Of a stretch of 64,000 nucleotides of DNA, positions 18,159-20,502 are shown in pieces (position 1 is the first letter of the stretch; each line of letters starts with the position of its first letter). Source of the DNA: Octopus vulgaris (lineage: Eukaryota); assembly GCA_951406725.2 (NCBI GenBank), contig OX597815.1, positions 49,228,001 through 49,292,000 of the forward strand, in the 5' to 3' direction. The position numbers and the translations under genes were made by a program. Under the pieces are notes generated by a model. The model was not told the origin of the DNA, ran no database searches, and was given only the letters and a program-made list of their open reading frames with translations.

Positions 18159-18771
18159 ATTTAAGTAATTACATATAAGTAAATTGCTTGATCAATGCTT
18201 TGTGACTGGAATTTGATCTTGAGAAACTGCACAGAAACCAATATTTCTGAAGTATAAATTAAAGAATTTTAAGTCATAGCCTGCACCATACTACAGATCC
18301 TTCAACTACTACAAAAACCATTACAAAAGCAACAAACATAAGGTAGCAAATAAGTATTTGCGCTGATGAGGTCAGATATCAATATTGTCTGAGAAAAGGT
18401 TAGCTTGCTAGATTATTTACTGTATCAATTATGGAAGGCTAATCTTGAAATTTAGCCATTGCTGAATTTGAACTTAGTAGAGAGAAGGCTGCTGAACCAA
18501 ACCACATAAAGCAACTCAGTCCAGTCTCGTTAACTATCCAGTTTTGAGACTATATCACTGTCTCACTGATCCAGTCAAGGCCAGTTCTCTATCCTCTACA
18601 TAGAAAGAATATCATTGCTTCCCTCCATCAGTCCAGACTAGTTCTCTATCTACTATACAGGTCCCTGCTTTCTTCATCTAGTCCAGATTATATTGTTCTA
18701 TATTTTTGAGATTAGGAATTCTGTACATTATTTACATTAGATGGATATGTCTCCTCATCTTGTTTGTTGTT

Positions 18772-18817
18772 ACCACAACATTTTGGCTAATTCACTCTCC
18801 AGCCTTCATCAGGTGTC
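18772..18817 (-). ncRNA. degenerate hammerhead motif (family H1)
   Basis: Reverse complement GACAC CTGATGA A GGCTG GAGAGTGAAT TAGCC AAAA TGTT GTGGT; GAAA is mutated to AAAA. Confidence 0.5.
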
Positions 18818-19142
18818 CTGGTGGAATTTTGAACCCAACCCTAGGTTCTCATTCCTAAAGTATTTTTTTGCTGATGTTATTATTATTATTATTATTATTA
18901 TTATCATTATTATTTATTCATGGCACTGCTTGGAATTGAACTTGGAATCTTGGGGTTAGTAGCTCATGCTCTTAACCACTATGCTATATGCCTGTGGGCA
19001 TGTAGCATAATGGTTAAGCCCACAGGCATATAGTGTAGTGGTTAAGCCCATAGGCATATAATGTAGTGGTTAAGAGCATGGACTACTAACCCCAAGATTC
19101 TGAGTTCAATTCCAGGCAGTGTCTTGAATATATAATAACAAC

Positions 19143-19201
<59 letters not shown>

Positions 19202-19262
19202 TAACATCAGCAAAAAATACCTTAGGAATGAGAACCCAGGGTTGGGTTCAAAATTCCACCAG

Positions 19263-19308
19263 GACACCTGATGAAGGCTGGAGAGTAAATTAGCTGAAAC
19301 ATTGTGGC
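19263..19308 (+). ncRNA. hammerhead motif (family H1)
   Basis: GACAC CTGATGA A GGCTG GAGAGTAAAT TAGCT GAAA CATT GTGGC. Confidence 0.6.
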
Positions 19309-20502
19309 AACAACAAACAAGATGAGGACACATATCGGTCCAATGTAAATAATGTAGTCCAGATTAGTTATCTGCTAATAGAGATTATGATGTCACATCT
19401 ACTCTCAACCAATCCAAACCAGTTCTTTATCTACTATACAAGCTCAAGTCACTGCTTTCCTCATTTAGTCCAGATTAGTTATCTGCTAATAGAGATTGTG
19501 ATATCACATCTACTCCTATCCAGTCCAGACCATTTCTCTATCCACTGTACATACTGCAATATCAGTACTGCCCTCAAGGTAAGGAAGGTGATTTCAGCAG
19601 TGACAACATTTAACACAGGAACAACACTGATATTAGCATACAACATCTAAAGTATAAAACAACAACCACAACTACTACTAACACTAGATTCTATAACCAT
19701 CCACATTACAACCACACCACCAACCTACACCACTGTTTCCGTCACCACCACTGCCATCACCACCATCGTCGTCGCCACCATCACCACCATCACCACCACC
19801 ACCGCCACCATTACAACAACAACATGTTTGTGGTCTCCAGAATAAGCTGGTGTGGTGTATAAAATATTCGTTACATTAGCAGTAACCAATAAGTCCACCC
19901 TGAAGGCTTTGTGGTTTCCTGATTACTTTCTGTTTAGTTACCGCATCCTTTTTCTTTTTTTATCTTATTTTATTTCATTTTATTTCCCACCATCATCAAC
20001 ACTCTTTGTTTCACTTCATCCTTTCTCTTCACTAGTAACGCATATTCCACCTCTCCACTAACAACTGCAGACACCTCACCTAACCGAAACTGAAGACCAA
20101 ACATTTTCATTCAAAACACCGTTGGCAGGCTGGAGTGTAAAGCTATTGGTGACTAACAAATGAACTGGCTTTAAACATAGTTGTTAAAATTGTAGTTGCT
20201 GCTGTTGTAGTCGTTATTGCTGTTGTCACTGTTGTTGCTGTTGTTGTTTTTTTAAATAAATTCCTTTATTTAATTTTGGAACTTAGTGTTTGATTTTAAA
20301 CTCGAACTATCGTCTTGTGCTGTACATGTTGCACCAAGAACTTGTCCTTGCATTTTGCATATACACACACTCATGTACATAAACACACACATACACATAC
20401 AGACAAACAAACACACACACGTGCACATAATGTATATATGCATTCATGATGCACATTTATATTCACTGACACCAATACATCTACAAATACTTGTACATAC
20501 CT

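Follow-up and report, generated by a model that had tools for sequence, protein, structure and literature searches.

Positions 18679 to 19366 of the 64-kb stretch of DNA analysed here (the window) hold two copies of a short repeat, H1, inserted head to head within one 12-bp target-site duplication (TSD). Our preferred explanation, in which we place middling confidence, is that this twin insert was laid down in one event by the enzyme of a Penelope-like element (PLE), with reverse transcription (RT) primed from both nicked strands of the target. The parts of this explanation differ in strength: we are very confident that both arms were inserted in one event and nearly as sure that PLE machinery did the insertion, and we lean towards twin initiation rather than the fold-back of one cDNA. 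H1 itself is, as read from its sequence, a non-coding repeat of about 310 bp whose tRNA-like head is followed by an (AAT)n tract and then by a 3' module made of a hammerhead motif and a tail of 29-33 nt. The inverted geometry is the known part of the finding, because head-to-head arms, a single duplication and a one-sided tail of 30-40 nt form the published PLE signature; the tRNA-SINE cargo and the reiterated junction are the new parts.

Target site, arms and family copies

The 12-mer TAGTCCAGATTA occurs at three positions only in an exact search of the 64-kb window (18679, 19355 and 19466). The first two are the left (18679..18690) and right (19355..19366) TSD copies, neither assigned a strand and the left one lying within a minisatellite of about 55 bp; the third, at 19466, belongs to a neighbouring minisatellite unit. 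When the insert and one TSD copy are removed, the rebuilt empty site aligns end to end with the minisatellite unit at about 19427-19551, with one 6-nt gap, and because of this alignment we regard the duplication at 18679/19355 as a true TSD. The original prediction, that one 12-bp TSD encloses two oppositely oriented copies and that removing the insert restores a unit like its neighbour, was thus correct on both counts. Eight of the 12 positions of the TSD at 18679-18690 are self-complementary, as might be expected if the endonuclease acts as a dimer; at the other loci no such pattern is clear. We considered a target-site consensus on this basis and dropped it, three loci being too few.

The left arm (18691..19001, minus strand) is a complete monomer with head, (AAT)n, body and tail, and the right arm (19046..19356, plus strand) has head, (AAT)n and body, lacks the tail and ends at an internal site, its last 2 nt being common with the TSD. 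Inverted matches join the arms at 18724-18868/19212-19356 (145 nt, 92%) and 18877-18999/19046-19168 (123 nt, 88%). The dimer is asymmetric, the left arm exceeding the right by 33 nt at its 3' end.

BLAST and profile searches of the 64-kb window found three loci of the family, which together supply five bodies and four heads. Besides the locus under study there is a monomeric member with a tail at 12259..12588 (minus strand; 8-9-bp TSD at 12250-58/12588-96), and a second inverted locus at 48565..49106, on both strands, with a tailed arm (48565-48846, minus), a 5'-truncated, tail-less arm (48892-49106, plus) and no clear TSD. Because two of the three loci are inverted, the structure is not unique to 18679-19366, and it is a recurring, published outcome rather than an oddity of that locus; none of the three is a head-to-tail array. 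Non-autonomous PLE derivatives are expected in head-to-head or partial-tandem arrangement with short TSDs, and this is the arrangement found, with TSDs of 12 bp and 8-9 bp at two loci and none clear at the third. The 45-nt spacer between the arms of the second inverted locus (48847-48891) has no other match in the window and is possibly 5'-transduced or captured DNA.

Other inverted pairs are present in the window, as listed by self-BLAST with a distance filter, a list that is not a census. An older, unrelated head-to-head pair at 58236-58870 (154 nt, 77%) has a hammerhead-like motif at 58801 and a central 105-nt direct repeat of 98% identity; we found no TSD for it, and it is probably another PLE-type inverted insertion. 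Further pairs at 35570-36287 and 5959-6753, with gaps of 250-500 nt, apparently belong to other repeat families.

The arms of the 18679-19366 locus were said to share private variants absent from other insertions, and they do. The 26-nt variant singled out earlier occurs exactly twice in the window, once in each arm. Over the common core, 8 substitutions (7 outside CpG) and a 6-nt insertion are found in both arms and in none of the 3 other copies, and each of the other nine copy pairs shares at most one non-CpG substitution there; the heads of the two arms add 4 exclusive shared substitutions. Overall identity, which had been put forward as a check, does not single out the arms, their raw distance being 12/140 against 10/134 between the monomer and the second inverted locus's long arm; it is the shared derived changes that tie them together. 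The arms differ from the other copies by 12-16%, about twice the 6-9% seen among those copies. Several CpG sites have decayed oppositely in the two arms, as expected of opposite strands, which argues against later homogenisation. The private variants and the opposite CpG decay together indicate that both arms came from one variant template and then aged separately. With the single TSD and the restorable empty site, the 7 non-CpG substitutions and the 6-nt insertion support the single event that had been proposed. A-to-I editing of the source RNA was rejected as the origin of the private variants, A to G accounting for 1 of the 7 non-CpG changes. The arms differ at 23 of 236 sites, and the insertion is roughly 10-15 Myr old if the host is an octopus and the calibration of 0.065 for 18 Myr, given in the accessible part of PMC13282606, holds.

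The tRNA-like head and the (AAT)n tract

The putative head occupies 18915..19001 of the left arm (minus strand), with an A-box-like motif at 18976-18986 and a B-box-like motif at 18933-18941, and 19046..19130 of the right arm (plus strand), with a decayed A-box at 19059-19069 and a B-box-like motif at 19104-19112. A relaxed A-box pattern is present in three of the four heads and the B-box in all four, with the boxes 45 nt apart; a strict A-box pattern did not match the majority head. With relaxed settings (ps80) ARAGORN called 3 of 4 heads versus 1 of 200 shuffles, and at default and ps90 it called no tRNA in the element heads. Rfam gave no tRNA or hammerhead match in the element even at E<=10. 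TTTT is absent from all five copies, as it is from 62 of 410 background stretches. Possessing both A and B boxes by sequence, the head resembles that of tRNA-derived SINEs (SINE2), and the repeat is likely a Pol III SINE.

The 3' end is not that of a classical SINE: there is neither a LINE-derived nor an A-rich or simple-repeat tail, poly(A) is absent, and runs of A within the last 40 nt reach 3-5 nt at most. The (AAT)n tract (18877..18914, minus strand, in the left arm; 19127..19204, plus strand, in the right) is a common SINE tail elsewhere in the window and is internal in the present element. We think it likely that the family originated when an ordinary tRNA SINE received a PLE terminal repeat in its (AAT)n tail, because PLEs have a microsatellite bias, as reported in the accessible text of PMC8557442.

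Two other short-repeat features of the window may be recorded here. A dense cluster of a different (AAT)n-associated short repeat, with at least 6 copies in 4 kb, lies at 51535-55520. A U6 snRNA copy (Rfam, 95.6 bits) lies at 38582-38692, and a full-length SINE from a different family follows it within about 10 nt; the U6 copy may be a retrocopy whose 3' end received a SINE insertion.

The hammerhead motif and the one-sided tail

Each body contains a candidate minimal type I hammerhead motif, located at 18772..18817 in the left arm (minus strand; first core box 18806-18812, second box damaged by a CpG-type change) and at 19263..19308 in the right (plus strand; first core box 19268-19274). Stem II has 6 of 6 pairs in all five copies and stem I 4-5 of 5; a bulged nucleotide precedes stem II in all five, the second core box is intact in four, and stem III is palindromic in two, with CpG-decay forms in the other three. 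A strict hammerhead descriptor matched four times in the window versus none in 50 block-shuffled windows. These are the traits that the accessible part of PMC4209133 gives for the minimal hammerheads of metazoan PLEs: a long stem II, a short stem I, a bulge before stem II and palindromic 15.2-16.2. The terminal module therefore appears by sequence to carry a PLE-type motif. Both motifs at the 18679-19366 locus are damaged. Folding of the hammerhead region gave unremarkable z-scores, between 0.52 and -1.72, and alignment folding of these few, close copies gave no compensatory changes at 16 predicted pairs; because of this, and because Rfam is silent, we infer ribozyme activity from the motif alone.

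The 33-nt 3' tail (18691..18723, minus strand) is confined to the left arm, and is also found in the copies at 12259 (30 nt) and 48565 (29 nt). In these three copies the tail extends 29-33 nt beyond a fixed motif inside the element, which is where the short arms at 19356 and 49106 both end. The short arm at 49106, unlike the other, reaches this end after duplicating about 9 nt of its 3' end, the kind of trace expected if initiation had restarted. Folding predicts that in the two tailed copies with fewer alterations a stem-loop spans the boundary of the tail. An optional 30-40-nt tail at one end of inverted insertions is a feature of PLE derivatives, and the family displays it. The PLE-type motif and this one-sided tail support the earlier suggestion of a Penelope-like rather than a standard SINE integration.

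The junction

The junction was predicted to reiterate a 28-bp sequence, and it does so as an array of 2.8 copies at 18997-19074. The final copy is the right arm's own 5' end, so that the extra DNA is limited to 19002..19045 (plus strand), 44 nt in which the element's 5' end is repeated once in part (16 nt) and once in full (28 nt). Both full units start at the same G and break at the same position, which suggests that a second cDNA slipped back twice before annealing; the G opening each unit is the probable 5' end of the RNA. The units have diverged by 2/28, about as much as the arms (12/140), and are plausibly as old as the insertion.

The centre of symmetry lies at 18988..19001 (plus strand), a 5-bp stem with a 4-nt loop that is the sole perfect hairpin of at least 5 bp in 18985-19060. 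Weak Rfam miRNA matches at the centre were rejected as mere reflections of this hairpin. The original prediction placed a fold-back at the hairpin of the 5' end, and a snap-back at the centre does predict 14 of the 16 following nt. This fit does not single it out, since an identical sequence would result if two cDNAs annealed through the self-complementary 3-5 nt of the 5' end, and the central stem, being partly made by the inversion itself, cannot decide between the two.

Proposed mechanism and alternatives

Under the explanation that we prefer, Pol III would transcribe the element from its A/B-box-like head, starting at or beside the G that opens each 28-nt unit. The 3' module would be a captured PLE pseudo-LTR (pLTR) end, recognised in trans by the RT/GIY-YIG protein of a PLE, and the enzyme would nick the two target strands 10-12 nt apart. 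The top-strand end would prime cDNA at the distal start site, yielding the tailed left arm, and the bottom-strand end would prime at the internal start site, yielding the tail-less right arm, with both cDNAs templated by the same RNA or by transcripts of one source locus. On reaching the 5' end of the RNA the second cDNA would slip back 28 nt twice. The two cDNA ends would then anneal through the self-complementary 5' end (3-5 nt), repair would seal the centre, and the arms would decay independently.

Published work on PLEs offers precedents for much of this scheme. In the accessible parts of PMC3846280 and PMC8557442, PLE insertions have head-to-head inverted pLTRs, an 8-10-bp TSD, a tail of about 31 bp on one arm and palindromic 5' ends. 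The accessible text of PMC11167929 reports that the purified PLE enzyme of Anolis, a lizard, cuts and extends both target strands in vitro and starts RT at two RNA sites bounding the tail. We favour two-ended priming because this enzyme extends both strands from two RNA start sites, and by analogy an internal RT start site (PMC11167929, as far as accessible) would explain the fixed end of both short arms more directly than fold-back.

The strongest alternative keeps the same element and PLE enzyme and has one cDNA prime itself, as a fold-back hairpin, into the second arm, after which the endonuclease resolves the product at the tail boundary; it is close to the self-priming proposal of PMC3846280 and the 'EN-mediated resolution' of PMC8557442, as set out in their accessible sections. 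We hold this possible, though doubtful. The snap-back prediction at the junction speaks for it, a single template would give the shared private variants directly and more easily than two independently loaded RNAs, and the inversion at the second locus begins in (TAA)n, a tract with which the (TTA)n of the same cDNA might pair. Fold-back nevertheless needs a second, fixed-site cut to produce the same end at both loci, an end that the published RT start sites give directly, and the two 28-nt backward jumps would have to occur within a tight hairpin. At a single site of the second locus, one arm and the monomer also have a base in common that is missing from the partner arm, which is a weak point.

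An ordinary LINE-driven SINE, inverted by L1-type twin priming or produced by two independent insertions at one site, would account for the tRNA-like head, the variable TSD length and the (AAT)n known as a common SINE tail in the window. In the present element, however, the (AAT)n lies inside the repeat and no A-rich or repeat tail follows at the 3' end; the inverted arm contains a second copy of the 3' part, where a mere reversal of the 5' part would be expected; this origin leaves the hammerhead motif and the one-sided tail without explanation; and two independent insertions would not share 7 private substitutions. We consider this origin improbable.

Also quite unlikely, in our judgement, is that a monomer came first and was later duplicated in inverted form when replication or repair went wrong, the 28-nt repeats being products of a revised palindrome centre. 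The arms share CpG-decay-like changes, as expected of an aged copy duplicated later, and their distance to the other copies (12-16%) is about twice the 6-9% among the others. A divergent source copy accounts for the shared CpG-like changes equally well, though, and against later duplication both arms are still bounded exactly by a single TSD, the short arm has its terminal motif in common with the short arm of an unrelated locus, and the 28-nt units are about as diverged as the arms (2/28 vs 12/140). Palindrome-centre revision as the source of the 28-nt repeats alone is possible. Finally, palindromes are a known sequencing artefact, but a fold-back chimeric read in the assembly is extremely improbable here, the arms differing at 8-13% of sites with opposite CpG decay and the flanks restoring a minisatellite unit.

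Coding capacity, protein relatives and the search for a partner

The insert is not an autonomous EN+ PLE: its 666 nt contain no ORF with RT and GIY-YIG endonuclease, the frame from the hammerhead ATG contains stops, and the longest open frame of the element body has no Pfam match. A read-through transcript of the inverted locus is predicted by folding to form a long hairpin with 568 of 666 nt paired, which would be a likely substrate for RNA editing or silencing.

Two named Octopus bimaculoides proteins match an open frame of the monomer body, and a named protein of O. sinensis matches a profile. Such proteins, apparently exonised or spurious readings of the repeat, place the family in Octopus. 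Pieces of the element body form the N-terminus of Octopus isoforms (P0002 and P0151: dystrobrevin beta X1; LOC115224785 X2), an observation that suggests exonisation or annotation carry-over. A whole-library search found the module in 101 mostly short representative proteins, and a profile search found it in 813 longer ones. Among 206 fetched proteins, 28 carry the module at least twice, and 23 of 30 intervals measure 43 codons, the distance from the hammerhead to the end of the tail. By analogy with the partial tandems of PLEs, we read these repeated modules as a head-to-tail unit.

In four of 207 relatives the frame runs past the tail into a conserved coding-like stretch, which we take to resemble the start of a Penelope/Poseidon ORF. 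Such a start would fit the account in the accessible part of PMC3846280, in which the ORF's first codons fall within the PLE pLTR and tail. The stretch (P0103/P0190) has no match in Pfam, the ESM Atlas, the PDB or phages, and a motif search in the supplement of PMC8557442 gave no matches. A Pfam scan found an RT or GIY-YIG domain in none of 100 module-bearing proteins. No RT/GIY-YIG partner was present among the best 120 of the 813 longer profile matches, where the single RT-RNaseH-type annotation proved unrelated, and a single-sequence search for longer proteins likewise found no partner. We discarded P0026 (2124 aa, InlB-type repeats), whose match is a false one due to composition.

Two traces of other elements were seen in the window. 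The region 44887-45252 (minus strand) gives a weak aspartyl-protease Pfam match (E 7e-4, just under the cut-off) and is probably an LTR-retrotransposon relic. The open frame at 26191-26580 (minus strand), presumably a mariner transposase relic by its appearance, has no Pfam match.

Significance

The inverted geometry by itself would not surprise PLE specialists. The reverse transcriptase of PLEs is the closest retrotransposon relative of telomerase, and a bolder reading, which we hold tentatively, takes the locus as the trace of a PLE RT re-copying the last 28 nt of its template in rounds, by telomerase-like translocation, together with an unreported Octopus class of PLE-mobilised Pol III SINEs; a single dimeric enzyme would have made the two arms of the locus, one from each of its RT start sites. 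If PLE mobilisation is true, a PLE enzyme can carry Pol III cargo by means of a tag of about 130 nt, and a PLE-mobilised Pol III SINE would add a third pairing to SINE-LINE and TRIMp3-LTR. Some of the SINE load of octopuses, which is largely unclassified, would also be reclassified; in O. vulgaris, 893 of 900 recently active SINE families are unclassified according to the accessible part of PMC13282606.

How PLEs make inverted, tailed insertions is described as unresolved in the accessible parts of PMC8557442 and PMC11167929. The question would become testable from genomes alone with a passenger that is short, present in many copies and divided into subfamily variants, and whose 5' end is defined: typing subfamilies arm by arm separates fold-back from twin initiation, and mapping of ends tests the two-start-site model beyond the lizard.

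Comparison with known systems

Ohshima and Okada reportedly described three octopus SINEs in 1994, and the repeat family may already be named. We found no description of a tRNA-headed, PLE-tailed SINE in the literature that we searched, which excluded Repbase, Dfam and most subscription papers. The comparisons below draw on the accessible portions of the reports cited.

Inverted pLTR insertions of EN+ PLEs (PMC3846280, PMC8557442, PMC11167929) are like the octopus locus in their head-to-head arms, one TSD, a tail of about 30 nt on one arm, a short 5' palindrome, a hammerhead motif near the 3' end and two fixed 3' ends. They differ in that the octopus repeat lacks an RT/endonuclease ORF and has a tRNA-like head and (AAT)n in place of the Pol II pLTR promoter, and we found the 28-nt junction reiteration of the octopus locus described for no EN+ PLE insertion in these portions. 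Of four features that mark non-autonomous PLE derivatives the octopus repeat shows three; the fourth is terminal sequence shared with an autonomous PLE.

With the minimal hammerheads of metazoan PLEs (PMC4209133) the octopus motifs share the long stem II, the short stem I, the bulge and the palindromic 15.2-16.2. In Schistosoma the same report describes dual motifs on opposite strands, 100-700 bp apart. The octopus motifs differ from the PLE ones in being attached to a SINE head and in being damaged, and their position on opposite strands precludes a dimeric ribozyme in one transcript.

Schistosoma's Sm-alpha and Sj-alpha repeats (PMC6765202, PMC2770079, PMC8490949) likewise join a hammerhead to a tRNA-related, apparently Pol III-transcribed SINE-like repeat. 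They form tandem arrays from which the ribozyme frees monomers, whereas the octopus copies are dispersed monomers or inverted pairs, and in the accessible text we found no PLE tail, inverted insertion or PLE partner described for them. Non-LTR retrozymes (PMC7229834; bioRxiv 10.64898/2026.07.22.740005) are also non-autonomous and hammerhead-bearing, and are proposed to be PLE-derived and PLE-mobilised. They are head-to-tail tandem repeats, with no tRNA head mentioned in the accessible text, and the octopus repeat, with no head-to-tail array at its three loci, lacks the tandem arrangement that defines them.

The TRIMp3 elements Cassandra, Helenus and Ajax (PMC10886601) are alike in grafting the Pol III promoter of a small RNA onto the cis-signals of a non-LINE retrotransposon. 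These elements have LTRs, a PBS and a PPT and rely on LTR retrotransposons; the octopus repeat would be their PLE counterpart.
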